Assembly (NCBI GenBank): GCA_942490705.1
Contig: CALNXY010000002.1
Span: 103,980-167,979 of the forward strand
DNA length: 64,000 nt
Direction of reading: 5' to 3'
Origin: an uncultured Caldilineaceae bacterium
GTDB taxonomy: Bacteria; Chloroflexota; Anaerolineae; Caldilineales; Caldilineaceae
Of this stretch, positions 22,103-49,515 are shown in pieces; positions within the stretch are counted from its first letter, which is position 1; the number at the start of each line of letters is the position of its first letter. The position numbers were made by a program, and so were the translations under genes. The notes beneath the pieces were generated by a model that searched no databases, was not told the origin of the DNA, and saw only the letters and a list, made by a program, of their open reading frames with translations.

Positions 22103-22108
22103 AGACCG

Positions 22109-28635: not shown

Positions 28636-28935
28636 ATTGCACTCCTTATGCGATGATTCTTTTGCGCCAGGCGCTCATAGATCGTTGGTTTCACGGCCAC
28701 GGTAGATGTGAGGGATTTGACGGCGGAAACCCGCCGTATCCGGCGCCTGCCGAGGTCCCCGTTCCTGCCTCTCGGAACTTATCCGCTAAAGGCCGAAAAA
28801 AAAGGGTGCATCCCATTTCGGGCGGCGGTCTATGAACGACCTGATCGATTTCTCTAGAGCGGCCACCCAAATGTGGTATGCAGCCGAAAAAAATTGACAC
28901 TTTACAAGAAAGCAAAGCTGTGATATTCTGGCATA

Positions 28936-29007
28936 AGCTCCGCTCAATATTGCGTTGTGGCTCAGCCACGTTCGGGGGAAGCGCAATGTTGAGCGGACTC
29001 TTTTTGT
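28936..29007 (+). ncRNA. Candidate small RNA (promoter-like element plus terminator-like hairpin, with no associated ORF)
   Basis: TTTACA (28901..28906), 17 nt, then TGaTATTCT extended -10 (28921..28929). A 15-bp stem follows, CCGCTCAATATTGCG (28940..28954) / CGCAATGTTGAGCGG (28982..28996), enclosing an inner GTGGC-TCA-GCCAC hairpin. The sequence ACTCTTTTTG follows the stem. Confidence 0.3.
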
Positions 29008-29128
29008 CTCGGCTCTTTCTCTTGCCTAGACGTTTCTTCTCCCAGTTCCCAGCTTTCCATGCAACTCTATGATCATGACACCTGTGGGGCAAGACCTTCC
29101 GCTGGCAGTGCCAGTCGGGATCGTCCAG

Positions 29129-30358: not shown

Positions 30359-30528
30359 CAGTTCTCTCCAGACTGCTTGCTTTGTCAATGAATTGCAGCG
30401 ATGCATCATACCTGAATTAGCATGACGGGTCAACGTATCCCCGCGCTCGGCAGGAATTCACAAGTTGGGCAGGGGGGCGCGGGTGCGGCCGTTTGCTGCC
30501 TGCGTTTTGCTGCGGGTACAATGGCGCC

Positions 30529-32127
30529 ATGGCTTGGTTCAAGCGCCGCAGGCGCGCACCATCGGAAACTGAAGAATCACCCTTTGATGGGCAGGCAGCG
30601 CAGCCGCGCCCGCCTGTCGAGCCGGCCACGACCTCGGGCAAGCAGGTAGAGTGGCAATTTGGCCATGACGATTGGCCCGAATGGATGGCCGAATCGTACG
30701 CAGCCGCGCCGCTGGCTGGTGAACGCTACTTCTATCCCATGAACGAGCCGGCCGCCGCAGCGCCTGGCGGTTCTATCGCCAATCCCGAAGATGCTGATCT
30801 AATTGAGGGCAACGCGGCCGGGATGGTCGTCTGGTCCGCGGCTGCCGCGACCTCCCACTCGGAATTGAGACGACTGACGGACGCCTTCCGCGGGCCGGGC
30901 GCTATCCAACGAGTAGAGGCCGTCCGTCGCGCGCTCGACCGGGCGCTGGAGCAGTGGTGGGCCGAAAGCACATTGCCCGCCAGCGGATTGCTGCGTGACG
31001 GTCTGCTTGTGCTGGAGGCTGGGCATGATCTGGACGAGAGCCAGCGATCGCTTTTGCTGCGCACGGCCACTGCCTATGATCGGGGCATTCTGACCGCATT
31101 GCATCATCAGACTGATCCGGAGCGAACGGCCTATATTCTTGCGGAGGCCATCACTTCGCCGACAATCGATCTGCCGCTTGAGCGAATTCAGACGTTGGCC
31201 TATGAGGATCCCCTCGGCGAGGCCTGGTTGCCCTATCTGCAACATGAATTAGTGGCCTATGCCGAAATTACGCCGGCCTATGACGAGTTGGCCATGGCCG
31301 CTTTGCGCCTTGATGCCAAAAAACCAGCGGTCCTGCCTCGGGCACGGCCAAGTGCTTCCCCGGCGCCCGAATCTATCCAGCCGCCGCCGGTGGCGCGCCG
31401 GTGGGTACGCCTGCTTCTGGCGCTGCTGGCATTCGTCTTGGTTGTGACGCTGCTGCTTGGTGATCAATTCCGTGGGCGTATGCGTGACGTGATCGAAGTA
31501 GGCGGCGGCACCTATTCGTTGCGCAACGTTGACGGAACCGAGCGCGTCGTGGCGCTGGATCCTTACGTGATTGACCGTTTCGAGGTTGGGGTGGCCGACT
31601 ATCGACGCTGTTATGCGGCCGGCGCCTGCGTCTGGCCGCGCGAGACCGCCAGTGTAACCCGACCTGACTACCTGACCAACCGCACGTACGACCGCTACCC
31701 CATGATTAACGTGGATTGGGCCGCGGCGACTGCATATTGCGAGTGGGCCGGGATGCGTCTGCCGAGCGAAGATGAATGGCAGGCGGCTGCATCGTACGCG
31801 CCGGCCACCGCACGCGCCTATCGTTACCCGTGGGGGGATACCTTTCAGCCGCAGGTGACCAATAGCCTGGAGGGTGGCCAGGGCGACACCACGGTGGTCG
31901 GGTCCTACCAGCCTAGCGGCAATAGCCCCATGGGCATGGCCGATGCAGCCGGAAATGTGGCTGAGTGGACGTCGACCACCGCCACCGGCGATCCGAGCAT
32001 TTATCGCACCAAAGGCGGCTCCTTCGCTGACGGTGCCGACTATCTGCAACCCCAGGTTGTTCAAAGCCTGCCCGCAGCCAATCAACATGACTGGTTGGGC
32101 TTTCGCTGCGCCGCATCCCCGCAATAG
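30529..32127 (+). CDS. Membrane-anchored formylglycine-generating-enzyme (SUMF1/FGE-sulfatase) domain protein
   Basis: Start taken at MAWFKRRRR (30529); the longest ORF starts at 30493. About 280 aa N-terminal region, one TM (WVRLLLALLAFVLVVTLLLG), then the FGE domain (FEVGVADYRRC..., MINVDWAAATAYCEWAGMRLPSEDEW, NVAEWT, RGGSF, GFRCA). Confidence 0.75.
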   Translation: MAWFKRRRRAPSETEESPFDGQAAQPRPPVEPATTSGKQVEWQFGHDDWPEWMAESYAAAPLAGERYFYPMNEPAAAAPGGSIANPEDADLIEGNAAGMVVWSAAAATSHSELRRLTDAFRGPGAIQRVEAVRRALDRALEQWWAESTLPASGLLRDGLLVLEAGHDLDESQRSLLLRTATAYDRGILTALHHQTDPERTAYILAEAITSPTIDLPLERIQTLAYEDPLGEAWLPYLQHELVAYAEITPAYDELAMAALRLDAKKPAVLPRARPSASPAPESIQPPPVARRWVRLLLALLAFVLVVTLLLGDQFRGRMRDVIEVGGGTYSLRNVDGTERVVALDPYVIDRFEVGVADYRRCYAAGACVWPRETASVTRPDYLTNRTYDRYPMINVDWAAATAYCEWAGMRLPSEDEWQAAASYAPATARAYRYPWGDTFQPQVTNSLEGGQGDTTVVGSYQPSGNSPMGMADAAGNVAEWTSTTATGDPSIYRTKGGSFADGADYLQPQVVQSLPAANQHDWLGFRCAASPQ

Positions 32128-33230: not shown

Positions 33231-33292
33231 CGCCCTGACCGCAAACCAGCCCGGGCCGAGAGCTCGATAGTGGTGCGGTCGGGCGTTTTTTT
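33231..33292 (+). terminator. Intrinsic terminator after the cysQ-like gene
   Basis: CGCCCTGACCGCA pairs with TGCGGTCGGGCG (one bulged T) across a long loop, followed by TTTTTTT (33286..33292). Confidence 0.6.
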
Positions 33293-33339: not shown

Positions 33340-33368
33340 GTGACAGGCCGGGCAAAGCGTGCTATGAT
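33340..33368 (+). promoter_or_regulatory. Sigma-70-type promoter of the hydrolase pair
   Basis: GTGACA (33340..33345), 17-nt spacer, TATGAT (33363..33368) with TG at the extended -10 position. Confidence 0.55.
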
Positions 33369-33377
33369 GCGGGCCAC

Positions 33378-33408
33378 GCGAGGTGCTAACTTGCACCTCG
33401 CAATTTTA
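33378..33408 (+). promoter_or_regulatory. 5'-proximal stem-loop in the hydrolase leader
   Basis: GCGAGGTGC-TAACTT-GCACCTCGC (9-bp perfect stem) followed by AATTTTA. It starts about 5-10 nt after the predicted +1. Confidence 0.45.
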
Positions 33409-33483
33409 CCTTGAAGACTGGCTGCATCACGCGCATGATTGTCTGCGCGAAACCCGTCAATACCCAAGCTAGAGGAACTGGCA

Positions 33484-36400
33484 ATGGCCCGGCCACTCTT
33501 TGATTCGCCTACCATCTACGGCTTGCACGACCCAGGTGGCGAGCAGATCTTGCTCGACGCCGGTCGGTCCGGATGGATTCTTTTTACGGAAGAGATTGGT
33601 CAAGATCCTGCTGATGAGAGCGGGCGAGATTATCGCGCTTACAGTTCGCAAAACCTTGGCGTGATCGTGCGCCTCAATCACGGCTACTTTCCACGCGGGA
33701 CGATTCCAACCAGTGATCGCTATGCTGAGTTTGCCCAGCGCTGCGCTAACTTTGTTGCCAACAGCCTGGGCGCAAAGATCTGGATCATTGGCAACGAAAT
33801 GAACTACGATATCGAGCGCCCCCGCTACAGCGCCCAGCCCGCGTTGGATGCGGAGACCGAGGCGTCCGTCAAAGATATCACCTATGGTGAATTGACGCGG
33901 GAAGGCTGGAACGCGTTCCTCCAGATGATCAGTGGCGGCATGGGCGATGCCGAGCTCGGGCGTCCGGTACCGCCGGTGACGCCGCCCGTGGCACGGCCGC
34001 CTCAAGCCTCGCCAGTACCGCCCGATCCTGACGACCCGTTCTACCAGAGCCTGCCGACGCGTTTTAGTGCGTTGCGCACAGAAGCGGAAGCCGACGCCGA
34101 TAACGAAACCGCGCAATTGGCCACGCCAAGCTACGTCGAAGTGATCACGCCGCAGAAGTATGCCGACTGTTTCCGCCGCTGCCGCGAAGCGATTCTGAGC
34201 GTGCCCGGCCATGCCAGTGATCAGGTACTCGTCGGTGCGGTGGCGCCCTGGAATAATCAGACCAGCTATCCCGGCAATGAGCGCGGCGATTGGGTGGCTT
34301 ACCTGACCGACACGCTCGAACTGCTTGGCCCTGATGGCCTGGACGGCGTTGCGCTCCACACCTACACACATCAGGCTGACCGCAATTTGATCTACGACGA
34401 ACGTAAGATGGACCCGCCCTTTACTGATCGCCATTACGAATTTCGCGCCTATCGTGACTTCATGGCCGGTATTCCCGAGGCGATGCGCCATCTGCCCGTC
34501 TACATCACTGAGACCAATCAGGACGTGACCTGGCTCAATCAGAATATCGGCTGGGTCCAGGCTGCCTATGGCGAGATCAACTACTGGAACGAACAACCCG
34601 GAAACCAGCAAATTCGCGCCTTGATTCTCTACCGCTGGCCGCGGATCGATATGTGGTATATCGAGGGCAAAGAGGGCGTGATTGAAGATTTCCGCCGGTC
34701 GCTGCCGCCGGATTACACCTGGACAGCAAGCGTTCCGCCGCCGGCAGACTATGGCGAGGGCGACATCCTGGCAACGCGCGACATCGTCAATCTCCGGCGC
34801 ACGCCCGGCTATTTCAATCAAGCGCCGGGTGATGTGATTGTTGCGCTGCCGGAAGGCACGCTCGTCCGCGTGACGGCCGACGCCTATGCCGAAGCGGATG
34901 GATTGACATGGTGGTCGGTTGGATCTGCAGAGCAAAACATCCAGGGTTGGATGGCCCAATCCGATCCCCAGGGTATCCCGTTGGTGCGGCTCGTCGAGCG
35001 GCGTATATCGGGTGGGCCTGACGGTGAATTGGGCGTCGGTTCCTTGGCAGTTACGTTGACGACGGTGCGCCTGCGGAAGTCGCCCGGCTATGTGGGTAAG
35101 CCGCCCGACGATACGATTATGGCCGTGGCGCCGGACACCAGCGTTGCGGTTGCCGACGGGCCGGCAACAATGGACGGCCTAACGTGGTGGGAGGTCCGCG
35201 GCCTTGAGTCTGACGGAACGCTCTTCGCTGGATGGATGGCTGAGACGGCGCCCAACGGCGTTAGGCTGCTGGAAGAGACCGGTGAAATCGAGCGGCCCGA
35301 CATTGGCCTGCCGAGCATTGATGACGACAAATTTGCGGTTGGCGACCAGGTTGTAACCCTCGATTTCGTTCGCTTTCGCCGTACGCCCGGTTACGTAGAC
35401 AAGCAACCGGACGATGTACTGGCCGATTTGCTCCCTGGTGCCGCTGGTCCGGTGCTGGATGGACCACGCCGGCGCGATGAGCTGGTTTGGTGGCAGCTGC
35501 GTATGCCGCTGCCCGACGGCGGCAATGCCGACGGCTGGGCGGCCGAAAGTGCGCCGAACGGTGTGGAGCTATTGGCGCTCGACGACGAGGGCGGTTCCGG
35601 CCAGATCGGCGCCTTCGCCCCGGGCGACGCAGCCATGACGCAGGACGTTGTGCGTTTCCGCATGACGCCCGGTTACGTCGACAAAGAAGCGAGTGACATT
35701 ATCGCCGACGTACCGACCGGCACCGTCGTCACTGTCGTGGCCGGGCCGGAAACCAAAGACGAGCTTGTCTGGTGGCAGGTCGACGCCCCAGTCTCCGGGC
35801 AAATGAAGCGCGGATGGATGGCTGAGACCGCACCCAGCGGCGCGACCTTGCTGGCGCCTTTCGATGGGGCGCTTCCCGGTACGGGTGACTATCAACCCGG
35901 TGAGTTGATCCAGGCCGCGACGGCGGTACGCGTACGTCGCACCCCGGGCACTGAAGGCAAACCAGCGGATGACGTCCTTGGCGATTTTGAGCCGTTGGCA
36001 ACCCTCAATGTGATCGAAGGCCCGGTCAGCCAGGACGGACTGTCGTGGTACCGGGTTGGCGGTATTTCGCTGCGCGTGGCCGAGGTGGTCGGCTGGGTGG
36101 CCGAGGTCGCGCCCAACGGCGTGAGGCTTCTGCAACGTGCGCCGAAATTGCCCGGCACCGATATCCCGAATTTGAGTATGGGGCTGGCATTGGCCATGCC
36201 CTTCCGGGGCGATTTTGGGATCGCCCAACTGTGGGCCGAAAACCCACCGATCTATGGCCAAATTCACTACGACGGCGTGCCGCTCAAAGGGCACAACGGC
36301 ATCGATTTTCTCACGCCTACGGGCACAGACTTGCAAGCTGTAGACGATGGTGTCGTTGCCGAGGCCGTTTACGAAGACCCCAGCGGCTTGGGTAATTATG

Positions 36401-36768
36401 TATTGGTGCATCATGCTTGGGGTGAGTCGATTTATGCCCATCTCAACGACATCGGGGTCGTCACTGGCCAGGCCGTGAGCCGCGGTCAACTCTTGGGTCA
36501 TTCGGGTAGCACCGGCTTTAGCAATGGGCCGCATCTGCACTTCGCCATCCGCATCAACCCCTACGTGCGTACCGATGGCTGGGGAGGCTATTCGGATCCA
36601 TTGCCCTACCTGCCACGCACCGCCGTGCACCTACCCGACTATGTCTTGCCGCCCGAGCAGCGTCGGCCTGTGCCCCAAGGACAGGCTATATCTCCGGGTC
36701 ACACACCGCTACCCGCTTCGTTTGCGCCAGGTATGGCTCCCGACCGGCCCGGCGTTCGCCGGCCCTAG
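33484..36768 (+). CDS. Multi-domain cell-wall hydrolase: N-terminal glycosidase-like domain, five SH3b-like repeats, C-terminal M23 (LytM-type) metallopeptidase
   Basis: Start taken at the ATG at 33484 (MARPLFDS), matching the paralog's N-terminus. N-terminal domain motifs are IGNEMN and VYITETN. Five repeats of about 85 aa have the pattern (V/L)R(L/F)R.(T/S)PGY...D(G/E)L.WW...GW.AE.AP.G..LL. The M23 motifs are HNGIDF and GSTGFSNGPHLHF. Confidence 0.8.
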   Translation: MARPLFDSPTIYGLHDPGGEQILLDAGRSGWILFTEEIGQDPADESGRDYRAYSSQNLGVIVRLNHGYFPRGTIPTSDRYAEFAQRCANFVANSLGAKIWIIGNEMNYDIERPRYSAQPALDAETEASVKDITYGELTREGWNAFLQMISGGMGDAELGRPVPPVTPPVARPPQASPVPPDPDDPFYQSLPTRFSALRTEAEADADNETAQLATPSYVEVITPQKYADCFRRCREAILSVPGHASDQVLVGAVAPWNNQTSYPGNERGDWVAYLTDTLELLGPDGLDGVALHTYTHQADRNLIYDERKMDPPFTDRHYEFRAYRDFMAGIPEAMRHLPVYITETNQDVTWLNQNIGWVQAAYGEINYWNEQPGNQQIRALILYRWPRIDMWYIEGKEGVIEDFRRSLPPDYTWTASVPPPADYGEGDILATRDIVNLRRTPGYFNQAPGDVIVALPEGTLVRVTADAYAEADGLTWWSVGSAEQNIQGWMAQSDPQGIPLVRLVERRISGGPDGELGVGSLAVTLTTVRLRKSPGYVGKPPDDTIMAVAPDTSVAVADGPATMDGLTWWEVRGLESDGTLFAGWMAETAPNGVRLLEETGEIERPDIGLPSIDDDKFAVGDQVVTLDFVRFRRTPGYVDKQPDDVLADLLPGAAGPVLDGPRRRDELVWWQLRMPLPDGGNADGWAAESAPNGVELLALDDEGGSGQIGAFAPGDAAMTQDVVRFRMTPGYVDKEASDIIADVPTGTVVTVVAGPETKDELVWWQVDAPVSGQMKRGWMAETAPSGATLLAPFDGALPGTGDYQPGELIQAATAVRVRRTPGTEGKPADDVLGDFEPLATLNVIEGPVSQDGLSWYRVGGISLRVAEVVGWVAEVAPNGVRLLQRAPKLPGTDIPNLSMGLALAMPFRGDFGIAQLWAENPPIYGQIHYDGVPLKGHNGIDFLTPTGTDLQAVDDGVVAEAVYEDPSGLGNYVLVHHAWGESIYAHLNDIGVVTGQAVSRGQLLGHSGSTGFSNGPHLHFAIRINPYVRTDGWGGYSDPLPYLPRTAVHLPDYVLPPEQRRPVPQGQAISPGHTPLPASFAPGMAPDRPGVRRP

Positions 36769-36780
36769 ATCAGAGCAGCT

Positions 36781-39700
36781 ATGGCGCGACCCCTGTTTGA
36801 TTCCGAATACATCTTTGGTATCCATGAGCCCGGCGGCGAGCAGCACATGCTGGCGGCGGGTCATCCTGGCTGGATTCTCTTTTCTGAGGCAGTCGGCCAC
36901 GATCCTCAAGACCGCAGCGGTGTGGACTTCTCATCGTATAGCGAGCAGGGCCTGGGCGTGATCTGCCGAATCAACAACGGCTACGAACCCGACGGTACGA
37001 TTCCGCATAGCTCGCTCTACGAGCAATTTGCGCGCCGCGTCGCCAACTTCGTTGCGACGAGCCGCGGCTGTCACATCTGGATGCTCGGCAACGAGATGAA
37101 CTACGCTGCCGAGCGCCCGGGCATCGTGATTGATTGGACGCGCCACAATACGACCCGCGGCGGTGCGCCTGAGATTGCCGACCCCATGCGCCGTGGCGTT
37201 GGCGTCCGCTTCAACGCATTGCCCGATCGCAGCACCGAGATTCGTACGACGCGGGGCGCGATTGTAAGTTCCGGCGAATTGATCACGCCAGAACGCTACG
37301 CACGCTGCTACCGCCTCTGTCGCGACGCCATCCATCGCTTACCCGGTCACGAAGCGGATCAGGTGCTCGTCGGTGCGGTGGCGCCGTGGAACACACAGAC
37401 GATTTATCCCGGCAATGCCAACGGCGACTGGATCCAATACTTTCGAGATATCTTGCAGATGCTCGGCCCGGAGCAGTGCGACGGTTTTGGGCTGCACGCC
37501 TACACCCACGCGGATGAGGCTGAGCGAATTGCCAGCGAGACCAAATTAGCCACGCCTTTTCAGCACTATCACCAAGAGTTTCACGTCTATCGCGATTTCT
37601 TGCAGGCAGTGCCGCCTTCCATGCGCCATCTGGCTGCCTACATGGTGGAGGCAGGCCCGACTGAGCCGTGGATCGATACCAATACGGGGTGGGTTCAACG
37701 AGCCTACGCGGACGTGGCCGAATGGAACGCCACGCCCGAGAATCAACAAATTCGAGCCGTAATTCTCTATCGCTGGCCCCGGGTCGATCGCTGGTTTATT
37801 GACGGCAAGTCCGGCGTCATCGAGGATTTCCAGGCGGCGTTGGCTCATCCCTACCGCTGGAGTGGGGGCGAGGCGACCGAAACGCCGCCGGCGCCCGTGG
37901 CCGAAGCGCTTGCACCGCCATACCGTGTCGCCTGGCTCGATGATCGCTTCCCTGAGCATCTGCTGGTTGGCGAGACGATCACCGTGCCGCTCACCTTGCG
38001 CAATGAAGGTCGTGAAGCGTGGGATTGGGGAGGCGGTAATCCCTTCCGCCTCGGCTATCACTACTACCGTAACCGCCGGCGCTTGCCCCTGCCGGCTGCG
38101 CTCGATCTGCGCACAGATATCCCCAATGACGTGCCGCCCGGCGCTACCGTCACGGTCGACGTGCGCATCGCCTTGCCCGAAGCCCCGGGTAACTACACGC
38201 TGGAGCTCGATCTGATTCAGGAGGGCGTGGGTTGGCTCAAAGATCAAGGCTCGCCGGTGCTGACGCGCTGGCTTACTGTCGAAGATACGCGCCCATCGCC
38301 TGCTGCAAATGGCGATGCCCCGCATGCAGAAGATGGACAAACCAGTGGGCTGGTGCCGCTCTTCAAAGACGTGAGCGCGGTGTTGCCGCGCTCTGGCGTT
38401 GCCTATGCGCGTCGCAGCCTCGATCAGGTCCGCTATCTCGTCATTAGTCATACGGGCGTCGATCCGCGGGTGCGCCTGGACGCCCTGGCCCAATCTCATT
38501 TGCGTCATGGCTATCCAGGCATAGCCTATGACTTTGTCATCGACCAGACGGGGCAGATATTGCGCGTCTCGCAATTGGAAGAGGTGGCTGAACCGCGTCA
38601 ACCCTGGTCATTGCAGGGTGTGAACATCGGCATGTTGGGGAATTTCAGCCATGATCCGCCGCCTTTGGCGCAGATTGATGCAGCCAGCCGCCTCTGTGCA
38701 TGGCTGGCCCAAAATCTTACGCTGGCGCCGGACGCAATCGTTGGACTGGGCGAGCTTACCCGCGGCGAGAGCCCCGGCCGTACTTTCTATCAGGGTCCCC
38801 AATGGCAGGCGCTGTTGCGGCGTCAGGTGCAACTCCACCTGGCCGTCCTTGGCCGGGGGGCAGAGGAGAGCAGGGCCAATGCGTTAGACGAGGAACGCAG
38901 CGCCTGGGCGACAGAAAAACAGGCACTGGAAGCGGAACTGAACCAGGCGCAAGCAGCGGTGCGCAGGCTGGAAGCGCTGCGCGAGCAGCTTCAGTTGGAG
39001 ACGGCCGATCTACGGCGACAATTTGAGGCGAAGCCTGAATCCATGGAGGGGCGGCCCCTGATCCGCAACGTCAGCGATTCACTGCCGCGTGATCCGGCCC
39101 GTTATCGCTTGCGCAGGGGGGATGACGTGCGCAGCGTCATTATCAACCACAGCGGCGCGCCGGCCGATTTGCCCCTTACCAAGATTGCCGAGCGTCATAT
39201 GCCCGACTGGCCCGGTATTCTCTTCGATTTTTGTATTGAACCGCAGGGCATGATCTTGCAAACCCAGCCGCTTGATGAAGTAGCGGACTCACCTCAGCCT
39301 TACGTTTCTCAAGCGATCAATGTGGCCTTTCTGGGCGATTTTGGTGATGATCTACCCACCAACGAGCAACTCTATGCCGGCGGTCAGCTCATCGCCTGGC
39401 TCTTGCGCCGCTATCCTCACCTCTCGATCGATGCCATCAAAGGCTTGAGCGAGGTGACAGATCATGAGTCGCCTGGCGAACAGTGGCTGCAGGGCGTGGG
39501 GTGGCGCGATGAATTGTTGGCCAACGTGCGACGGGCCGGCGGTCTGATTGACCCCAGCGAGACCGAGCAGGCGCTCCGCGCTGAAACGGAAGAATTGACG
39601 CGCCGTCTGCAAGTGTCGGAGCGGAACAATCAGGCTCTGCAGGAGCAGCGTCGCCGTCTGCACGAGGAGAATCAGGCATTACAAACGCAGGTCGCTGCAC

Positions 39701-40590
39701 CCGCACCGGCGACACGCCGCATCGTCGTGCCCCGGCCTGCGCTGCGTGACATCGCCGACAGGCTGCCCCGGCACCCGACAAGCCAATACCCGCAGCGGTC
39801 GCTCAATCAGATTACCCATCTGGCCGTCCACCACACCGCAACCCTGCGTACCGTCGGCCCCATGCGCATTGCCGAAATGCACGTGAATGCCGATCCCAGC
39901 CGCGGCAAAGAGGCCTGGCCCGGTATTGGCTATCACTACTATATTCATGCCGACGGCAATATCGATCAGACCAATCCATTAGAAAACGCGGCCTTCCATG
40001 TTTACCGGCACAATGGCTATACGGCCGGCATTGCCTTTGCCGGCAGCTTCATGAATGGCTCGACGCCCACTTCGGCCCAACTTCGTTCCGGCGCGCATCT
40101 GCTCGCCTGGCTGATGCAAGAATTGGACATCCCGCTGGCGCGCGTTTGGGGACATCGAGAGTTCCCCGATAATGTCACCGTCTGTCCGGGCAGTGAGTGG
40201 ACCGGCGGCAAGCGCTGGCGTGATGAACTATTCGAGCAGATCGAGCAGATTCAAAACGGAATCGGTATCAAAAGCGTGCGTCATTACCTGCTCTTCTGGC
40301 AGCGACCCTATCCCGGCCCGTTGGCACAGCGTGACTACATCAACGCCGTTGGATACGTGGCGCGCTTCCGCCCCACGGTAGGGTTCAGCCCGGAAGACGC
40401 TCGACAAGCGGAATACGTGACAATTGTGGGGGGGCAGTCGGGTGTTCCCGCTGCTATTGAGCAGATGCTGCGCGACAGCGGCTGTAAGGTTGAGCGCATC
40501 GCCGGGCGCGATGATGAGGAAACTGGCCGGATGCTGGCCGAGCTGGTGCGGCTGGATCGTCGCTTCCGTACCTTTGATGTAGATTTCTAA
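36781..40590 (+). CDS. Multi-domain cell-wall hydrolase: paralogous glycosidase-like domain, Ig-like domain, three amidase_2 (PGRP-type) modules separated by coiled coils, C-terminal cell-wall-binding-like domain
   Basis: 1269 aa, beginning 12 nt after the previous stop. The N-terminal roughly 350 aa align with the preceding gene (MARPLFDS..., GNEMNY, VLVGAVAPWN, ILYRWPR.D.W). The third amidase module keeps HHT...GHREF...CPG; modules 1 and 2 have L and S at the latter two positions. Heptad-like Q/E/R/L-rich linkers join the modules. Confidence 0.8.
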   Translation: MARPLFDSEYIFGIHEPGGEQHMLAAGHPGWILFSEAVGHDPQDRSGVDFSSYSEQGLGVICRINNGYEPDGTIPHSSLYEQFARRVANFVATSRGCHIWMLGNEMNYAAERPGIVIDWTRHNTTRGGAPEIADPMRRGVGVRFNALPDRSTEIRTTRGAIVSSGELITPERYARCYRLCRDAIHRLPGHEADQVLVGAVAPWNTQTIYPGNANGDWIQYFRDILQMLGPEQCDGFGLHAYTHADEAERIASETKLATPFQHYHQEFHVYRDFLQAVPPSMRHLAAYMVEAGPTEPWIDTNTGWVQRAYADVAEWNATPENQQIRAVILYRWPRVDRWFIDGKSGVIEDFQAALAHPYRWSGGEATETPPAPVAEALAPPYRVAWLDDRFPEHLLVGETITVPLTLRNEGREAWDWGGGNPFRLGYHYYRNRRRLPLPAALDLRTDIPNDVPPGATVTVDVRIALPEAPGNYTLELDLIQEGVGWLKDQGSPVLTRWLTVEDTRPSPAANGDAPHAEDGQTSGLVPLFKDVSAVLPRSGVAYARRSLDQVRYLVISHTGVDPRVRLDALAQSHLRHGYPGIAYDFVIDQTGQILRVSQLEEVAEPRQPWSLQGVNIGMLGNFSHDPPPLAQIDAASRLCAWLAQNLTLAPDAIVGLGELTRGESPGRTFYQGPQWQALLRRQVQLHLAVLGRGAEESRANALDEERSAWATEKQALEAELNQAQAAVRRLEALREQLQLETADLRRQFEAKPESMEGRPLIRNVSDSLPRDPARYRLRRGDDVRSVIINHSGAPADLPLTKIAERHMPDWPGILFDFCIEPQGMILQTQPLDEVADSPQPYVSQAINVAFLGDFGDDLPTNEQLYAGGQLIAWLLRRYPHLSIDAIKGLSEVTDHESPGEQWLQGVGWRDELLANVRRAGGLIDPSETEQALRAETEELTRRLQVSERNNQALQEQRRRLHEENQALQTQVAAPAPATRRIVVPRPALRDIADRLPRHPTSQYPQRSLNQITHLAVHHTATLRTVGPMRIAEMHVNADPSRGKEAWPGIGYHYYIHADGNIDQTNPLENAAFHVYRHNGYTAGIAFAGSFMNGSTPTSAQLRSGAHLLAWLMQELDIPLARVWGHREFPDNVTVCPGSEWTGGKRWRDELFEQIEQIQNGIGIKSVRHYLLFWQRPYPGPLAQRDYINAVGYVARFRPTVGFSPEDARQAEYVTIVGGQSGVPAAIEQMLRDSGCKVERIAGRDDEETGRMLAELVRLDRRFRTFDVDF

Positions 40591-40630: not shown

Positions 40631-41494
40631 GTGTCACCTGCCGGCTCATTTCTGACCGAACCACATGCTCTGGGCTCCGCCTATCCAGTCAGCCTGCCCG
40701 ACTTTCAGGGTCCGCTTGATCTGCTGCTGCAGCTGATCGAGAAGGATGAACTTGACATAAATGAGGTGAGTCTGGTCGCTGTGACAGATCAGTATCTTCA
40801 GACGATTGAAGCCATGGACGAAGAGCTGGAGCCGGGAGGGCTGGCCGATTTTCTGGTAATCGCTTCTCGATTGCTCTACATAAAGTCGCGCACGCTGTTG
40901 CCCAAAGCGCCTATGGATGATGAAGAGGAAGAGGAAGATAGCGCTGACGCACTGATCCGTCAGCTGCTGGAATATCGTCTCTTTAAGGAGGTGGCAGGGC
41001 AGTTGCGAACACGCGAGGAGGAAGGACTGCGCGCCTATGTGCGTTTGGCGCCTCGACCGGAACTAGAGCGCCGGTTGGATCTCTCCGATGTGGACATGGA
41101 TAAGCTGCAACGGGCGTTGCGGCGCGCTTTGGCCCGCATTCCCTCAGATCCGCCCATGCCATCGGTCAAGACCTATCCGATTACCGTCGCCGAACAGATC
41201 GATAACGTGCGCAGCTATATCTTCAGTGCCCAACGTCGTCAACAGGGCGCAGGTGAAGGGGTGAGTTTTACCGAGTTGCTCAGTCGAAACCAGACGCGCG
41301 TCGAAGTGATCGTAACGTTCCTGGCTGTCCTTGAACTCATCAAGCAGCGGGAACTGCTGGCCGAGCAGACGAATACCTTTGGCGAGATCATGCTCCAGGC
41401 GGCCCCGCGTGAAAGCGAAGAGGAAGTGGAGGATCCGATGGACGAACCCGTCGGAGGTCAGTCCGATGCCGCGTCAGAGTCAGAATCGCGCTGA
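40631..41494 (+). CDS. scpA: Segregation and condensation protein A
   Basis: 287 aa with a GTG start. FQGPLDLLLQLIEKDELDINEVSLVAVTDQYL is the hallmark ScpA kleisin N-terminus. The C-terminal winged-helix region is VTFLAVLELIKQ. Confidence 0.85.
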   Translation: MSPAGSFLTEPHALGSAYPVSLPDFQGPLDLLLQLIEKDELDINEVSLVAVTDQYLQTIEAMDEELEPGGLADFLVIASRLLYIKSRTLLPKAPMDDEEEEEDSADALIRQLLEYRLFKEVAGQLRTREEEGLRAYVRLAPRPELERRLDLSDVDMDKLQRALRRALARIPSDPPMPSVKTYPITVAEQIDNVRSYIFSAQRRQQGAGEGVSFTELLSRNQTRVEVIVTFLAVLELIKQRELLAEQTNTFGEIMLQAAPRESEEEVEDPMDEPVGGQSDAASESESR

Positions 41495-41512: not shown

Positions 41513-42514
41513 TCAGCGCCGCCGGCGCAGCCGCAGGTAGGAACCGCCCAAAACCCCAGCTCCGCCCAAACTTAACCCGCCCAGGAAAAGCAGCATCGCT
41601 GGTGAACCGCTCGTTGCCGTTGCCACGTTCAGTTGCGTCGCGCCAAAGCCACCGACAGGCGTCACGGTAGGCAGGGGCGTCCACGTCGCCGTGGGCGTAA
41701 ACGTAGGTGAGGGGGTGGCAGTAGGCGTTGGCGAGGGCGTGGCCGTCGGTGACGGCGTCGGTGACGGCGTTTCTGTTGGGGTTGGCGTTGCAGTAGGGAC
41801 CTCAGTTGGAATGACCGCGGCCGCAGCCACCTCGACCGGAGGCGGCGGTTCCGGGGTTGCGGTTGGCGGCACTTCCACCTGCGGCGCACTCTCGTCCGGA
41901 TAGAGGGCGAGGGCATCGACAAAGATCAGATTGTCACCCGTGCTGCGCGGATGGTCGACGAGGAAAAAGACCGTTATGGTTTCCCCCAATGCGCGGGCTT
42001 TGACGTCGATATTCACGTCGGGCGGCGGATAGTTGAGGATACGGCCTTCTCCCCAGTGCATAGGACCCCAGATGACAGTCGGTGCGTTGGGGTCCGTGCC
42101 GCCGGTGGGATCGATACCGAGCTGGCGGCCAAAGGTTTCGGGCGCATTGGGCGCTCCCCAGGCGAGGCTGGCGCGATAGCCGGCCCCTGGCGTCACGGCA
42201 ACCTGGGTATGAATGCCTGCCTTGAAGGTGCCGCCAATGCTGCGGATCATCAGGCTGGGCGCGCCCCAAAAGGTGTCGTGGTGAGAGCTAAAGTTGGGGT
42301 CGCCCTCCAGAACAAACTCCGTCCAGCCATTGGGTATTTCACGGGGCGGGCTGCCGCTAAATCCGCTCATATCGCAGACGGATTGGGGAATTACGTTGGG
42401 TGGATTACATGGCTCTGACGCGAAGACTCTCTGTGGCCAGAGCAGCAGGGCCGTTATCCAAATGAAGGACCCGATCATCAAGATACGGGTCAACGAAGAT
42501 AGATCTCTTTTCAT
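41513..42514 (-). CDS. Secreted protein of unknown function with Pro/Thr linker and C-terminal hydrophobic anchor
   Basis: The ORF was trimmed to the ATG at 42514 (MKRDLSS...). Order: signal-peptide-like segment (IGSFIWITALLLWPQRVFA), about 200 aa globular region, about 70 aa PT-rich linker, then GSPAMLLFLGGLSLGGAGVLGG followed by LRLRRRR. Confidence 0.6.
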   Translation of the reverse strand: MKRDLSSLTRILMIGSFIWITALLLWPQRVFASEPCNPPNVIPQSVCDMSGFSGSPPREIPNGWTEFVLEGDPNFSSHHDTFWGAPSLMIRSIGGTFKAGIHTQVAVTPGAGYRASLAWGAPNAPETFGRQLGIDPTGGTDPNAPTVIWGPMHWGEGRILNYPPPDVNIDVKARALGETITVFFLVDHPRSTGDNLIFVDALALYPDESAPQVEVPPTATPEPPPPVEVAAAAVIPTEVPTATPTPTETPSPTPSPTATPSPTPTATPSPTFTPTATWTPLPTVTPVGGFGATQLNVATATSGSPAMLLFLGGLSLGGAGVLGGSYLRLRRRR

Positions 42515-42737
42515 AGCCAACAGTATAGCCCTCTGCAACGGCAACGACAAAATTTGAAGCAAAACCGACATTGACAACCGGTGCATTCTGGGCCAAACTA
42601 TTGTCTTGAGGCGATGAAGAATGAGCGCCTGCCAGTCGCCATCGGCAACTCGGCCGTGCTTCGCCACACGCAAGATAGATCAGAACACGTGCAATCGATA
42701 CGCTGCAACGTTTCAAGCGCCCAATATCCATACCAAC

Positions 42738-44025: not shown

Positions 44026-44820
44026 ATGCAGCCAGACTTTTCTGAACCGATCTACCTGGAACAGCAGTTGGGCGTCCGTGTTCAGGACAGAAAACTACTT
44101 GCCCAGGCCTTTACCCATCGCAGCGTCCTCAACGAAGTGGCAGATGACTCAGTGGTTGACAACGAGCGTCTCGAGTATTTGGGTGATGCTGTGTTGGAAC
44201 TGATTGTCAGTGAATATCTCTTCGAGAAGTTCCCGACGCATTCTGAAGGTGAATTGACCCGACTTCGTTCGATTCTGGTGCGACGCGAGACCTTGGCCAT
44301 CGTGGCCCAGAAGTTTCAGCTTGGGGAATCACTGCGGTTGGGAAAGGGAGAAGAGGAGAGCGGCGGGCGTCAGCGTTCAGCAACCCTGTGCGCCGTCTTC
44401 GAGGCTGTAATCGGCGCAATTTTCGTGGATCAAGGAATCGAGACCAGCCGCAATGTCGTACTCGAACTGCTGGATGACGAAATCCAGCAGCTGACCAGCA
44501 ACTCGACGACCAAAGACCCCAAGAGTCGGCTGCAGGAGTACGTTCAGAGCACCTTTGGCGAAACGCCCCGCTATAAGACCGTCTCCAGCAGCGGGCCCGA
44601 CCATGCCAAACGGTTCGTGCAAACGGTGAATGTGGCCAAGAAGCCCGTTGGGGTCGGCCAAGGGTTGAGCAAGCAGGAGGCAGCCCAGGCTGCGGCCTCG
44701 CTCGCCCTGGTACGTTTGAACCAGCAGGCCCCGGAGTATGTCCCCGATGAACCGCTGGAGGAGAGTTTTACGCTACCTCCGGTGGCCGAGATCTGGGCGC
44801 TGGCGCTGCCCAAAGAGTAA
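44026..44820 (+). CDS. rnc: Ribonuclease III
   Basis: 264 aa. ERLEYLGDAVLE signature and a C-terminal dsRBD (...GPDHAKRF...GQGLSKQEAAQAAA). Confidence 0.9.
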   Translation: MQPDFSEPIYLEQQLGVRVQDRKLLAQAFTHRSVLNEVADDSVVDNERLEYLGDAVLELIVSEYLFEKFPTHSEGELTRLRSILVRRETLAIVAQKFQLGESLRLGKGEEESGGRQRSATLCAVFEAVIGAIFVDQGIETSRNVVLELLDDEIQQLTSNSTTKDPKSRLQEYVQSTFGETPRYKTVSSSGPDHAKRFVQTVNVAKKPVGVGQGLSKQEAAQAAASLALVRLNQQAPEYVPDEPLEESFTLPPVAEIWALALPKE

Positions 44821-44834
44821 GCGAAGCGCTGTGC

Positions 44835-47800
44835 CTACATCTGCACGAGGCCCTCGATTTCCCTGACCTCGTCGCCGCCTTGACCGTCCGCCTGGACGAT
44901 CTTTTCGTCTTCCAGCTTCAAACTAATCACTTTACTCACGCCGTCGTTGCCCATGGTGACGCCGTAGATGGCGTTGGCCCCTTCAAGCGTCCGCCGATTG
45001 TGAGTAACGATAATGAACTGCGTGTCGGCGCTCAACTCGTCCTCCACCGTCTGCCGGAAGCGATCGACGTTGGCTTCATCCAGGGCCGCATCCACTTCGT
45101 CCAGTACGCAGAATGGCGTGGGGCTCACGCGCAGGATAGCAAAGATCAGCGCGCAGGCGGACAGCGCCCGCTCACCGCCGGACAGGAGTGCGAGGCTCTG
45201 GGGACGCTTGCCGGGCGGGCGGGCGATAATTTCAATGCCCGTCTCGGTGATGTTGTCCGGTTCAGTAAGCACGAGCTTAGCGGTGCCGCCATTGAAGAGT
45301 AGTTTGAAGAAGTGTTCGAATTGAATCGAAACTGCCTTGAAGGTTCGATCCAGCTCCACTTCCATCAGGTCATCCAGTTCACGAATGACTTTGCGCAAAT
45401 CGCGCGCCGCGGCCTCAAGGTCTTCCGACTGGCTGATTAAGAAGCCATGGCGTTCAGCGGCCTCTTCGTATTCGCGTGGCGCTTCCGGATTGACGTTGCT
45501 GACCCGGCTGAGGCGTGCGCGCATCTCCCGCACTTCACTCTCCAAGCCGTCGGGCAACTCTTTGACGACGGGCAACTCCTCCACGAAGGTTGCCAGGGGC
45601 AGAGGCGGTTGATAGGCGACATCGTCGCTTTCTTCAAGCGTTACAAGACCCAAATCATGCTCGATTTCGCGATGGAGTTGAGCAATCGTATCCTCGGCAC
45701 GCTGGCGTTGCAGTTGCGCATGATTCCAGGAAGATTCATCGTTGCGCAGCAACTGCTGAAGCGTCCGTTCGCGCTTCTCCTCATCGGCCTGATTGCGTTC
45801 GAGTGCAGCGAGCTCGGTTTCGGCCGGTTCGATTTCCTGGCGCAATCCGTTGATCTTGGTGCTGAGTTCATCCTCTTGTTCGTCGAGCCGACCGATCTGC
45901 TCTTGAAGCTGCTCGGATTCGGCGCCCAACTCCACAATGCGCCGCTCCTTGGCCGCAATTTGGTCGACGATGCTCTGGCGGTTGCGGCGCTGGTTTTCCA
46001 ACAAGGTCTGTTGACTGCGCAGATGGCCCTGGGCTTCGGCCGCGGCGGCACGCAAGTCCGCCAGCTGGCGTAGCAGTTCGTCGAGGCCGGCCTGGGCCAC
46101 GTCACTCTCGGCTACCTCCAATTCAGTCGCGTTGCTTTGCCGGACGGTCGCCAACTCGGCAAGACGCAGGTTGAGCGCCGCTTCTCGCTCATCCAATCGA
46201 GTTAATTCTTCCATCGTCTGGCCAAGTCGCTCTGTCTGCCATTGTACAGCCTGGAGCGCCCGATCGTGTTGGCGCCGCAATGCTTCAATCTGCTGATTTT
46301 GCTGGCGTTCTGCACGTGCCAAGTCGGCCAGTGTCTGTTGCGTCTGCTGGATCTGCAGTTGATTCGCTTCAATCTCAGCTGCAATCGATGCGCAGCGCGT
46401 GGCTGCTTCGCCGGCTGCCTCGGATGCGCGTTCGACTTGCGCCGGCAGTTCGCGCAGTTCTCGTTCCCGCGCCAAGATGGAATCATCGCGACGACTGCGG
46501 TCGCTGCCGCCGGTGACGGAGCCGCCCGGACGGATGATCTCGCCGGCGAGGGTGACAACAGTCGGTCGTGACCCTTTCGTATGCGCGTCAAGTGCACGCC
46601 GCGCCGCATGTAGGTCTTCAGCTACCCAAACGCGCCCCAGCAGTTGAGCCACAGCATCGCTGATCGTTGCGTCGAAGGTGACCAGATCGGCGGCGTTGCC
46701 CAAAATGCCGGCTGAATTCGGCGCAGGTATGCCGGGCAAAAGATGGAGACGGTCTAGAGGTAGAAAGGTCGCTCGCCCCTGGCCGCCCTGCTTGAGGCGG
46801 TCGATTGCGGCTTGGGCCGTTCGCCAGTCACGGGTCACGATGTTTTGCATGGCGCCGCCCAGTGCTGTCTCAATGGCTTTGTCCAGGTGAGAGGGCACAT
46901 GAAGCATGGCTGCCACAGTGCCCAGCACGCCCGCAAGCTGGGCCTCTCCGCTTTGTGCGCTCTGAAGAATCGTTCGTACGCCGCTGGCATAGCCGGCGCC
47001 CTCATCGTGCAAGCGCTGCAGTAGATCCAGGCGTGTCTGCAGGCGATCAACTGCTCGGTCTGCATCCTGGCGCGCTTTCTCAGCGCTCGCTAGCTCTTGC
47101 TGCCTGCTCGTAATGGCAGGCTCCATGTCTGCAATCGTCGCTTCGAGCGCCGTCACCTCTTCTTCCAGGCGCTGGCGTTCTGCTTCCTGGCCACGTAGCG
47201 CTGATTCATGTTCCTGAGCGCTTGTTGCCGCGGCCTGCTGTGCGCTTTCCTGGGTTTCCGCGTCCTGCGTCAGCTGGGCGCGTCGCTCGGCAAGCTGAGT
47301 CAGGCGGGCGGCGCCTTCAGTCTGTTGACGGGTTGCGTCTTCCAGAACGCTGCGGGCGGCATCCAGCGCATCCTGTAACTGGTTGCGCTCCTCCTGGCGC
47401 TGGGCCAGAACCAACTGTATCGCGTCAACGTCGGCTTGGCGCCGCATCGATTCCTCACGCGCGGCGGTAACCTGTGCAGTCGTCTCTTCAACTCGTGCGG
47501 CCACCGTCTGCTGCTGTAGGTTGAGCGGGGCAAGCTCGCGCTGCATTTCTTCGCGACGGGATTGGTTTTGGCGCTGCCGCTCTCGTGCAACGGCCAATTC
47601 GCGGCTGGCGCTTTCGGCCGCTTGGTGGAGTCCGCTGCTCTTGCCATGCAGCCCGCCAAGTTGCTCGCGCAATTCGCTCTGACGCGTGCGAAGCACCTCG
47701 ATGCGTCCTGCCATGTTGTTCAGCGCTTGCTGACGTGTCACCACGCTCTGCTGAAACTTTTTTTCTTCACTGTTAAATCGTTCCAGTTGGGCAATCGCAT

Positions 47801-48506
47801 CATGCCAGCGGAAACCATACCAAACCCGCAGCAATCCGCGCAGGTCATTGGCAATTTGCTCACGCTCGTAGGCCCGATCCGCCTGGCGTTTCAAATATTT
47901 GAGACGCGGGCTGAGCTCCGCCACGATGTCCTGGACGCGGGTAAGATTTTGCTGGGTGGCATCCAATCGGCGCAGGGTCGTCCTGCGTTTGAGCTGATAA
48001 CCGGTGATGCCGGCCGCTTCCTCAAAGAGCGCGCGTCGCTCTTCCGGTGCGAGGCTGAGTACCTTGTCGATTAACCCCTGGCCGATCAACGCATACGTAC
48101 GCTTACCAAGTCCGGTCTGGGCCAGCAGCTCGGTGATGTCCATGAGGCGCACGCGCTGACCGTTGATGAGGTACTCATTGTCGCCATCGCGATAGGCGCG
48201 GCGGGTGATTTCGAGTTCCTCGTAGTCAATCGGGATTTCGCCGCTCCGATTGTCAAGCGTCAAGCTGACTTCGGCCATCCCCAGCCGCGCCTTCTTGTCG
48301 CTACCGGAGAAGATTACGTCGCTGGTCTTCTTTGAACGCAGGAGGCTGAAGCTCTGCTCGCCCAGGCACCAACGGACGGCGTCGACGATGTTGCTCTTCC
48401 CCGAACCATTGGGACCGACCACAGCCGTGATGCCAGGGTCGAAGACGAATTCAGTTTTTGTGGCAAAGGTTTTGAACCCTTGGATAACGACTCGTTTGAT
48501 GCGCAT
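44835..48506 (-). CDS. smc: Chromosome segregation protein SMC
   Basis: 1223 aa. Walker A (GPNGSGKSN), long coiled coils, a hinge, and a C-terminal LSGGE...[11 protein letters not shown]. Confidence 0.95.
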
Positions 48507-48771: not shown

Positions 48772-49515
48772 TTACCCGTTGACAAAAAGGCTGCGCCAAG
48801 GGCCGGGCAGCATATATTCGAGCAATAGCGCCAGAATGAGCATGCCCAAGGATGCCAGCAGAAGCGTCCTGCGTTGCGTCCAAATTCGCGCAGGCGACCA
48901 GTTCCCTGTCCACATGGGTTCAGCAAAGAGCGCGACAAAGCCGATGAACGCAGCAATGCGCAGCATGGCCCATGGGAAAAATACGACCAATGCAAAGACT
49001 CCCTGATCCAAGTTGGCCAGCAGTTTGCCGCTCACGAATGCGGTCTGATTGACGGTTTGCAGCAGCGTCCAAATACCAATTAGGCCGCCGCTCACGTATG
49101 AACCTGCGGTCACGGCCAGGAATGCGATCAATCTCGCCAAGGGCGTCGTTTGCTCGGTTCCCGGATAGGCTACATCCGTGTAGAGCCATTCGAGCGTAGA
49201 CGTGCTCAGATCGAAACCGTCGCGGATTGCTCCGTCAATGCGATCGCCGGCAGCGTATGCCACCCAGCCGATCACGAGCGCCTGCGTCAACACCCAGAGC
49301 ACCAGCATCCTGAGGGTGACGCCCATGGCGTCCGCGCCACCTGCAGAGCCCGTACGCAGCGCCACGCCGAGGAGAATCGTCAGGGTCACGCTCTGTAGCA
49401 GAATCAGTAAAAACGCCTGGCCGAAGAAGGCCGGAATAACTGTGGTTAGGATGGCAAAGACGCCGACCGCTGCCAGAAAGAGCGGATCGCGCGCCACGCT
49501 ATACTCAGAGTTCAT
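48772..49515 (-). CDS. Integral membrane protein, function unknown
   Basis: 247-aa ORF with about six hydrophobic segments. No motif recognised. Confidence 0.5.
   Translation of the reverse strand: MNSEYSVARDPLFLAAVGVFAILTTVIPAFFGQAFLLILLQSVTLTILLGVALRTGSAGGADAMGVTLRMLVLWVLTQALVIGWVAYAAGDRIDGAIRDGFDLSTSTLEWLYTDVAYPGTEQTTPLARLIAFLAVTAGSYVSGGLIGIWTLLQTVNQTAFVSGKLLANLDQGVFALVVFFPWAMLRIAAFIGFVALFAEPMWTGNWSPARIWTQRRTLLLASLGMLILALLLEYMLPGPWRSLFVNG

Follow-up and report, generated by a model that had tools for sequence, protein, structure and literature searches.

What would two very large predicted wall hydrolases act on, and how would they reach it, when they are encoded side by side next to the chromosome-segregation gene scpA and carry no recognizable export signal? 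The question is raised by two genes, here called A and B, in a stretch of 64,000 nucleotides (nt) from an uncultured, filamentous Caldilineaceae bacterium (Chloroflexota; contig CALNXY010000002.1, positions 103,980 to 167,979 of the forward strand). The whole stretch is referred to as the window, and all coordinates are positions within it. A and B are ancient paralogues that form a conserved chromosomal pair, and we hold it on balance probable that they are conserved leaderless, LytA-like hydrolases of the organism's own multilayered wall.

Gene layout

The two genes and the domains of their products, in amino acids (aa), are as follows.

33484..36768, + strand: gene A, 1094 aa; GH-A-like domain, five SH3b-like repeats, M23 peptidase, Pro-rich tail
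36781..40590, + strand: gene B, 1269 aa; GH-A-like domain, Ig-like module, three Amidase_2 modules, CWB2-like tail

A preliminary description, made from the sequence alone, had noted two adjoining genes of these sizes, 12 nt apart behind a promoter-like element, and the coordinates, the spacing and the site were all confirmed. The open reading frame (ORF) of gene A extends from a TTG at 33439, and the ATG at 33484, which gives the MARPLFDS start, has AGAGGA 7-13 nt upstream. Gene A stops at a TAG (36766-36768), and the ATG of gene B follows 12 nt further on in the same frame. Only the TAG and four codons lie between the two coding sequences (36766-36783), and a read-through product would be 2367 aa long. 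Because the A-B spacing ranges from 5 to more than 400 nt across orthologous loci, the shared frame is probably incidental.

The shared N-terminal domain

Both proteins open with the same type of domain.

33484..34728, + strand: N-terminal clan GH-A-like (β/α)8 domain of A, aa 1-415, with Asn104-Glu105 (GNEMN) and Glu343 (YITETN)
36781..37875, + strand: N-terminal clan GH-A-like (β/α)8 domain of B, aa 1-365, assigned from AlphaFold2, Foldseek and invariant columns

The two domains share 46% identity over 429 columns (BLASTP, E = 9e-117), and that of A contains a Pro-rich variable insert at aa ~113-215. Searches of Pfam, NCBIfam and the PDB sequences with this N-domain returned no match, and its relatives match DUF5722 only weakly and locally. 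A word-indexed search recovered 167 relatives, those with a named source all being from Caldilineae or Anaerolineae, and an exhaustive profile search of 50%-identity clusters recovered 1685 at E ≤ 1e-3 and 777 at E ≤ 1e-30, so that the family is of considerable size.

In an alignment of 65 members, Gly59, Gly72, Pro75, Gly96, Trp100, Asn104, Glu105, Asn107, His239, Glu290, Trp297, Trp304 and Arg331 are invariant, and Arg63, Tyr241 and Trp332 nearly so. The AlphaFold2 model of the B domain built from this alignment (pLDDT 91.3, pTM 0.90) consists of eight β-α units, with Asn104-Glu105 following strand 99-102 (β4), His239 and Tyr241 on strand 235-242 (β6), Glu290 on strand 285-293 (β7) and Trp332 after β8. 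Foldseek comparison of the model with the PDB gave 117 matches at E ≤ 1e-3, and the best 50 of these 117 are nearly all clan GH-A enzymes, including GH26 lichenase and mannanase (E = 6e-8; TM-score 0.47 normalized to the query and 0.62 to the target) as well as PslG, GH50, GH35, GH5, GH44, GH128 and CcsZ. The putative catalytic residues are highly conserved: N104, E105 and E343 are each present in 44/44 A-type sequences, and among B-type sequences E105 is found in 46/46, N104 in 45/46 and E290 in 44/46, the remaining two having Gln.

Together, the modelled barrel, the GH-A matches and the conserved Glu positions support reading the N-domain as a clan GH-A-type barrel in which the acid/base and nucleophile Glu stand where they would be expected, as the preliminary description had read from the GNEMN motif and a downstream Glu; structural comparison led to GH-A enzymes and not to a non-hydrolase family. 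The domain is predicted to be a retaining glycanase, with Glu105 as acid/base and Glu290 (B) or Glu343 (A) as nucleophile. We could not assign it to a described family, and it is a candidate new GH-A-type family.

The fusion partners of the domain in Chloroflexota are all wall-related (Amidase_2, M23, LysM, GH108, muramidase PF11860 and SH3_3). As its Sec-bearing relatives carry the carbohydrate-binding modules CBM6 and CBM35 and F5/8-type C and PA14 domains, and as other relatives already have a muramidase or GH108 in the same chain, a non-peptidoglycan polysaccharide of the wall or matrix appears somewhat more likely as the substrate than the peptidoglycan backbone, a preference that we hold loosely. 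In this respect our reading departs from the earlier one, which had counted the glycosidase domain as a possible part of a murein-cutting set.

Repeats and peptidase of protein A

C-terminal to the GH-A-like domain, protein A carries two further elements.

34756..36168, + strand: five tandem repeats of ~95 aa, presumed wall-binding, putative SH3b fold by AlphaFold2/Foldseek
36289..36558, + strand: Peptidase_M23 (LytM-type), aa 936-1025, PF01551, E = 5.6e-24

The five repeats, anchored at residues 435, 528, 629, 723 and 815, share 16 invariant columns, and orthologues of A have 3-7 copies. Modelled with AlphaFold2, a single repeat (pLDDT 86) forms an all-β barrel. Its best PDB matches are SH3b domains, from lysostaphin, ALE-1, Psm endolysin and NlpC/P60 proteins, with TM-scores of 0.54-0.58 and probabilities of 0.97-1.0 but statistically weak E-values of 0.04-0.3. 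Pfam SH3_3 matched 2/5 repeats weakly (E = 0.023), and repeat profiles of 5 and 34 sequences had no match among PDB sequences. It is fold comparison alone that points, weakly, to an SH3b assignment.

The M23 domain has the HxxxD (H937, D941) and HxH (H1017, H1019) motifs, retained in 42-43 of the 44 A-type sequences, and its best-scoring models are ShyA, MepM and DipM-like. A-type orthologues number 43 and range from 911 to 1305 aa. The five SH3b-like repeats and the M23 endopeptidase first described for this protein were thus both recovered, the repeats with a weak fold match.

Amidase modules, spacers and tail of protein B

The remainder of protein B is composed of seven elements.

37921..38340, + strand: Ig-like module (NBR1-type, PF16158-like), E = 0.003, 18.6 bits, below the cutoff of 28
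38356..38880, + strand: Amidase_2 module 1, predicted inactive, second zinc-ligand His replaced by Leu656 and zinc-ligand Cys by Ser664
38878..39051, + strand: helical (coiled-coil-like) spacer 1, from composition and weak Pfam coiled-coil matches
39070..39555, + strand: Amidase_2 module 2, predicted inactive, Leu889 and Ser897 at the ligand sites and Tyr replaced by Phe815
39553..39705, + strand: helical (coiled-coil-like) spacer 2, from composition and weak WWC1 and KASH_CCD matches
39745..40260, + strand: Amidase_2 module 3, catalytic by its residues His1018, Tyr1051, His1125 and Cys1135
40261..40587, + strand: CWB2-like C-terminal module, single copy, presumed to bind a wall polymer, from a profile of orthologue tails

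There are 46 B-type orthologues, of 1089-1370 aa. PF16158 is present in the homologue P0006, and the Sec-bearing relatives P0226 and P0218 have it at the position of the Ig-like module of B. Pfam Amidase_2 matches three stretches of B (E = 4e-44), the best being residues 1009-1137 in module 3.

The amidase modules were aligned with T7 lysozyme, in which we take His17, His122 and Cys130 to be the zinc triad and Tyr46 to be catalytic, the positions being checked in the alignment, and were then surveyed across the 46 orthologues. Module 3, which matches the solved amidases 6srt and 6ssc, peptidoglycan recognition proteins (PGRPs) and T7 lysozyme, has all four residues in 46/46. Modules 1 and 2 have His or Cys at two of the ligand positions in 0/46: the second His is replaced by Leu, Val, Ile, Ala, Met or Phe, and the Cys by Ser (Asn in three module-1 sequences). 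With two of the three zinc ligands missing in all 46 orthologues, modules 1 and 2 are almost certainly inactive and, like non-catalytic PGRPs, probably serve to bind muropeptides. Of the three Amidase_2 modules that had been counted in B, all three folds are therefore present, but only module 3 has the zinc ligands, so that one active amidase is predicted.

The spacers, of ~50-58 aa, are kept in orthologues while their sequences diverge freely. In a column-based check, spacer 1 has a median length of 58 aa across orthologues and is composed of 71% A/E/L/K/Q/R/M and 3% Pro/Gly, consistent with a coiled coil.

Pfam found no match in the tail of B. A profile of 21 B tails matched the Clostridioides difficile proteins Cwp8 (5j6q, E = 2.2e-9, two repeats matched), SlpA HMW (~1e-6) and Cwp6 (0.016), in agreement with the wall-binding-like repeat suspected there earlier; the CWB2 alignment covers ~45 of 108 tail residues, in the second half of the module only. 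In Cwp proteins, three tandem CWB2 copies form the binding unit. The tail of B has one CWB2-like copy instead of the usual tandem three, and we conjecture that the helical spacers may trimerize B, joining three such tails.

Absence of export signals

Hydropathy and N-terminal alignment revealed no signal peptide or transmembrane helix in A or B, and the earlier statement that neither has a Sec, Tat or lipoprotein signal holds. The maximal 19-aa Kyte-Doolittle values are 1.29 for A and 1.23 for B, compared with 1.8 and 2.7 for two nearby membrane proteins. A hidden upstream start with a signal peptide was excluded, since the possible N-terminal extension is at most 15 aa for A and nil for B. 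In nearly all family members the initiator Met directly precedes the MxRPLxDS…G.HDPGGE segment ahead of β1. A, B and most Chloroflexota members share this absence of a leader, a genuine feature of the branch.

More distant representatives differ in part: 14/136 have a Sec-type leader directly before the domain, and those Sec-bearing relatives that were scanned are fused to CBM6, CBM35, F5/8-type C, PA14, CARDB, NBR1-type Ig or SH3_3. In Chloroflexota fusions of STAND type, in which the domain follows nSTAND1, AAA or WD40, one transmembrane helix lies between NTPase and hydrolase. The Sec leaders of some relatives and the transmembrane helix preceding the domain in the STAND fusions indicate that the domain acts outside the membrane. 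The fusions had at first been taken as a sign of cytoplasmic use, a view reversed by this helix; they resemble NLR-like proteins that span the membrane and carry a wall hydrolase on the outside.

Two sets of relatives have unusual architectures. In Chloroflexota proteins of 1100-1700 aa (P0177, P0199, P0190, P0181) the domain stands behind an nSTAND1/AAA NTPase, trypsin-like, WD40 or PD40 region, and P0181 combines the GH-A-like domain with two Amidase_2 modules. An Anaerolineae subfamily (P0078, P0073, P0108) has a ribbon-helix-helix domain (ParG-like, PF09274), then LysM and the GH-A-like domain, with no signal peptide, an odd joining of a DNA-binding-type fold to wall-binding and glycosidase modules.

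Distribution and age of the pair

A scan of one genome per species recovered at least 485 relatives, and the best 80 loci were analysed. Almost all are from metagenome-assembled genomes (MAGs) of Caldilineales/Anaerolineae, two titles being uninformative on phylum. When the domains of A and B were mapped onto these loci, both architectures proved to be conserved in full. The A→B tandem is present in 33/80 loci, with an inositol-monophosphatase (IMPase) gene upstream of the pair in ~30; scpA is present in 50 related loci and lies directly after B wherever the B tail was mapped. The order IMPase-A-B-scpA persists down to 44% ScpA identity, and in Litorilinea aerophila MAGs (L054, L068) IMPase-B-scpA is kept and A lies elsewhere. 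The pair is thus not peculiar to this genome and represents a conserved syntenic Caldilineales locus. The N-domains cluster by A or B type in 89/90 cases, indicating that the A/B duplication predates the species radiation.

The closest relative is a "Chloroflexia" MAG, MFD09779.bin.1.15, with 93% identity. In this MAG (L001:6703-9985) B is intact, and the A orthologue appears as a 283-aa ORF plus fragments, probably through a long-read assembly frameshift rather than as a pseudogene. The exact A and B proteins are present in public collections, with no names attached.

Transcription signals and neighbouring genes

Three features bear on the expression of the pair.

33340..33368, + strand: promoter-like site GTGACA-17 nt-TATGAT with extended -10 TG, a consensus match only (10/12 positions)
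33378..33401, + strand: hairpin with a 9-bp stem in the presumed 5' leader of A, from a terminator-like scan, directly 3' of the promoter-like -10
40631..41494, + strand: scpA (SMC kleisin), SMC_ScpA E = 5e-37, 40 nt 3' of B

The promoter-like site is the best of six in the consensus scan of 32-42 kb, and the consensus scan found no terminator-like site between A and B or between B and scpA. It is likely that scpA belongs to the same transcription unit as B, and A and B are probably co-transcribed with scpA from one promoter. By eye, an imperfect GC-rich hairpin with a T-run lies 3' of the IMPase gene (~33240-33292). Rfam gave no match in the whole window at gathering thresholds, and at permissive thresholds the leader gave chance-level matches only. 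The intergenic length upstream of A varies from 33 to 410 nt among orthologous loci, showing that the 5' leader of A is not conserved. A riboswitch (e.g. ydaO) before the hydrolase genes was dropped as a candidate, given the Rfam result and the variable intergenic length.

The pair lies in the order tyrosyl-tRNA synthetase, transmembrane/FGE-domain protein, IMPase, A, B, ScpA, Pro/Thr-rich membrane protein and pyridoxal phosphate enzyme, and the Pfam scan identified RNase III, SMC, cytochrome bc components and valyl-tRNA synthetase further out. As the preliminary description had stated of the surroundings, no phage or holin gene was found in the Pfam-scanned flanks of ~12-16 kb on each side (21.5-58 kb). 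These flanks are housekeeping in content, and the intergenic gaps are too short for another gene.

Segregation genes near the pair, within 8 kb, are scpA (40631-41494), RNase III (rnc, 44026-44820) and smc (44835-48506, - strand). scpB was not seen directly after scpA, having been looked for only through the Pfam scan of neighbours. The gene at 41513-42673 (- strand), convergent to scpA in 21 related loci, encodes a 386-aa protein with no Pfam match, which has an N-terminal hydrophobic segment, a conserved ~190-aa domain, a long Pro/Thr-rich linker and a C-terminal transmembrane helix followed by RRRR, resembling a sorting signal. The gene at 30493-32127 (+ strand), two genes upstream of A and conserved in 22 loci, encodes a protein whose N-terminal half is cytoplasmic and which, beyond one strong transmembrane helix (aa ~305), has an FGE-sulfatase (SUMF1-like) domain on the outside. 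ORFs of 421, 133 and 247 aa at 21512-22777, 28691-29092 and 48772-49515 (all - strand) have no Pfam match; the 133-aa ORF (28691-29092) has a low GC content at third codon positions (0.51) and may be non-coding.

Proposed function and alternatives

In our proposal, each protein would combine a GH-A-type glycanase with wall-targeting modules and one cutter of peptidoglycan peptides. Targeting would be provided by the five SH3b-like repeats in A, and by the Ig-like module, the two dead Amidase_2/PGRP-like modules and the CWB2-like tail in B. The M23 endopeptidase of A would cut cross-bridges, and module 3 of B, as a MurNAc-L-Ala amidase, would strip stem peptides. Together the two would take apart a wall composed of a glycan polymer, peptide cross-links and stem peptides, and would open or split septal or lateral wall in cell separation or filament breakage. 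The linkage to scpA and the proximity of smc would fit expression with the segregation and division programme. The self-wall target, the division timing, the co-transcription and the export route are the parts of this proposal that we infer. The idea that the pair supplies endopeptidase, amidase and possibly glycosidase activities as one unit, already put forward in the preliminary description, is supported at the level of domains for the M23 domain, for one amidase and for the GH-A barrel, though not for three amidases.

Since neither protein has an export signal, a non-classical route like that of LytA is the most likely one, either by release from lysing sister cells in the filament or by some translocation step. 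LytA, an Amidase_2 autolysin that likewise has no leader, binds a wall polymer through its C-terminus. In exponentially growing cells it is found in the cytoplasm or at the membrane; it acts at the septum, has a part in separating daughter cells, and is set free by or in the course of lysis (PMC12029793). Cell rupture has been suggested at the filament ends of Litorilinea aerophila (bioRxiv 10.1101/2025.08.19.671072). The route to the wall had been called unexplained; leaderless autolysins have a well-known precedent in LytA.

Several points weigh against this proposal. No export mechanism can be named for A and B, and the absence of signal peptides and transmembrane helices was judged by Kyte-Doolittle hydropathy and N-terminal alignment. 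The comparative data all come from MAGs, some of them frameshifted. In Litorilinea and a number of Anaerolineae the two genes are not linked, and the linkage to scpA may reflect inherited gene order rather than functional coupling. The structural similarity of the N-domain to known GH-A enzymes is modest (TM-scores of 0.45-0.63, identity 9-13%), and to our knowledge no clan GH-A family cleaves the peptidoglycan backbone.

The same leaderless state, conserved over the whole A and B families, would also suit enzymes that are held in the cytoplasm for programmed sacrificial lysis and freed when a triggered filament cell dies, in a necridium-like filament break or an abortive infection that dissolves the wall of the dying cell and the adjoining septa. 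Leaderless CwlC-type amidases carry out mother-cell lysis in Bacillus (PMC6403190), and peptidoglycan-attacking effectors are described in conflict systems of multicellular bacteria (PMC7159879); in Chloroflexota the GH-A module, in part with Amidase_2, is attached to conflict-system-type proteins with nSTAND1, AAA, WD40 and PD40. The filament ends of L. aerophila are DNA-depleted, with membrane remnants read as rupture (bioRxiv 10.1101/2025.08.19.671072). However, the transmembrane helix of the STAND-fused relatives puts the domain outside the living cell instead of storing it inside, A and B lack a sensor or NTPase module, and scpA, smc and the housekeeping neighbours suggest constitutive rather than emergency use, so that we regard sacrificial lysis as unlikely. 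We are equally doubtful of its widest form, in which A and B would be stockpiled executioners of cell-autonomous lysis in Caldilineae filaments, the N-domain would found a GH family for a Chloroflexota wall polymer, and STAND NTPases would have captured the module. If this were true, the cutting of shared outer layers and septal wall would break the filament or excise an infected cell. A new principle would be involved only in the case of sacrificial lysis; the locus is otherwise an autolysin-type system of mostly known modules.

Use against other bacteria, by lysins secreted or released for predation or competition, would be in keeping with the several lytic activities per protein, reminiscent of lysostaphin (M23 and SH3b), and with the predatory habit of some Chloroflexota such as Herpetosiphon (PMC3368417). 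It is nevertheless a quite improbable explanation: there is no signal peptide and, in the scanned flanks, no secretion-system or immunity gene; the genes occupy a single-copy syntenic core locus beside scpA and not a variable island; and the CWB2-like module and the degenerate PGRP-like ones have evolved together with the host lineage. Even less credible is a domesticated prophage lysis cassette of holin-dependent endolysins, although leaderless amidase or M23 domains with SH3b or other wall-binding modules are typical of endolysins and the M23 and amidase parts have PHROGs matches to endolysin families. Besides the phage-free flanks, with no intergenic room for a further gene, a search of 50,697 phage genomes gave no match to the N-domain, the viral structure library BFVD contained only distant GH5-like phage proteins resembling it, and module 3 is the only part of B with phage-endolysin matches, at 24-36% identity; the locus is syntenic across the order, and the GC content of A and B matches that of the flanks. 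A recent prophage origin was rejected on the housekeeping context and the phage-genome and viral-structure searches. We consider it just as improbable that the proteins serve cytoplasmic turnover of wall precursors or muropeptides in the manner of AmpD. The missing export signal would fit, and Amidase_2 includes the cytoplasmic AmpD and T7 lysozyme, but the SH3b-like repeats, the CWB2-like tail and the PGRP-like modules would bind wall that is already assembled, relatives have their GH-A domain on the outer side of the membrane, and M23 endopeptidases act on cross-linked peptidoglycan.

The Chloroflexota envelope is poorly understood, the outer layers and septa of the filaments being of unknown chemistry, and whether it is monoderm or "neoderm" is debated; we know of almost nothing on the division or fragmentation of Chloroflexota filaments. 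As leaderless hydrolases of the organism's own wall, A and B would make this locus a conserved candidate wall-splitting pair with orthologues in the culturable L. aerophila (the two MAG loci described above). The substrate of the N-domain may reveal a lineage-specific wall polymer. The pair would also be a second, phylogenetically remote case of conserved leaderless autolysins and would bear on how LytA-like proteins reach the wall.

Comparison with known systems

A search of the Chloroflexota envelope literature found no description of the pair or of the N-domain, which agrees with the initial impression that no system with such a pairing had been described, and the pair did not turn out to be an already characterized autolysin family. 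The nearest precedent for B is LytA of Streptococcus pneumoniae, which likewise has an Amidase_2 domain, a C-terminal wall-polymer-binding module and no signal peptide (PMC12029793). LytA differs from B in its size (~36 kDa), its N-terminal amidase and its choline-binding repeats in place of a CWB2-like tail, and from both A and B in having no glycosidase domain, degenerate amidase modules or paired M23 partner.

The Cwp family of C. difficile resembles B in that the CWB2 repeats of Cwp8, SlpA and Cwp6 match its tail, and Cwp6 combines an amidase with CWB2 as B combines one with its CWB2-like tail. Cwp19 illustrates that a glycosidase-like TIM barrel attached to CWB2 can work as an autolysin (PMC5765458, PMC6016235); the GHL10 domain of Cwp19 is not among the best 50 of the 117 structural matches of the N-domain. 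Unlike B, which lacks a signal and has a single copy, Cwp proteins carry Sec signals and CWB2 in three copies.

Lysostaphin and ALE-1 resemble A in joining M23 to a wall-targeting part, and the A-repeat model matches their SH3b domains, though weakly. Lysostaphin, a secreted pre-pro-enzyme directed against other staphylococci, has a single SH3b that follows M23, whereas in A five divergent SH3b-like repeats precede M23, a GH-A domain is present in addition, and there is no signal.

Clan GH-A enzymes (GH26, GH39-like PslG, GH5, GH128, CcsZ) and the N-domain have in common the (β/α)8 barrel, Asn-Glu after β4, Glu on β7 and His/Tyr on β6. The N-domain is set apart from them by its low identity (9-13%), TM-scores of 0.45-0.63 and the lack of a Pfam or NCBIfam model.

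The division hydrolases of E. coli and Vibrio (AmiA/B/C with EnvC/NlpD; ShyA/MepM) resemble A and B in pairing an amidase with an M23 protein, in their case to process the septal wall. Unlike A and B, they are Sec- or Tat-exported or lipoproteins, with amidases of the Amidase_3 family. EnvC and NlpD serve as activators and are themselves inactive, in contrast to the M23 domain of A, which keeps all metal ligands. What sets the A/B pair apart from known autolysins is an N-domain of undescribed GH-A type on both proteins, the conservation of two inactive amidase modules on helical spacers, a CWB2-like tail in one copy, the conserved absence of a leader and the fixed linkage to scpA.

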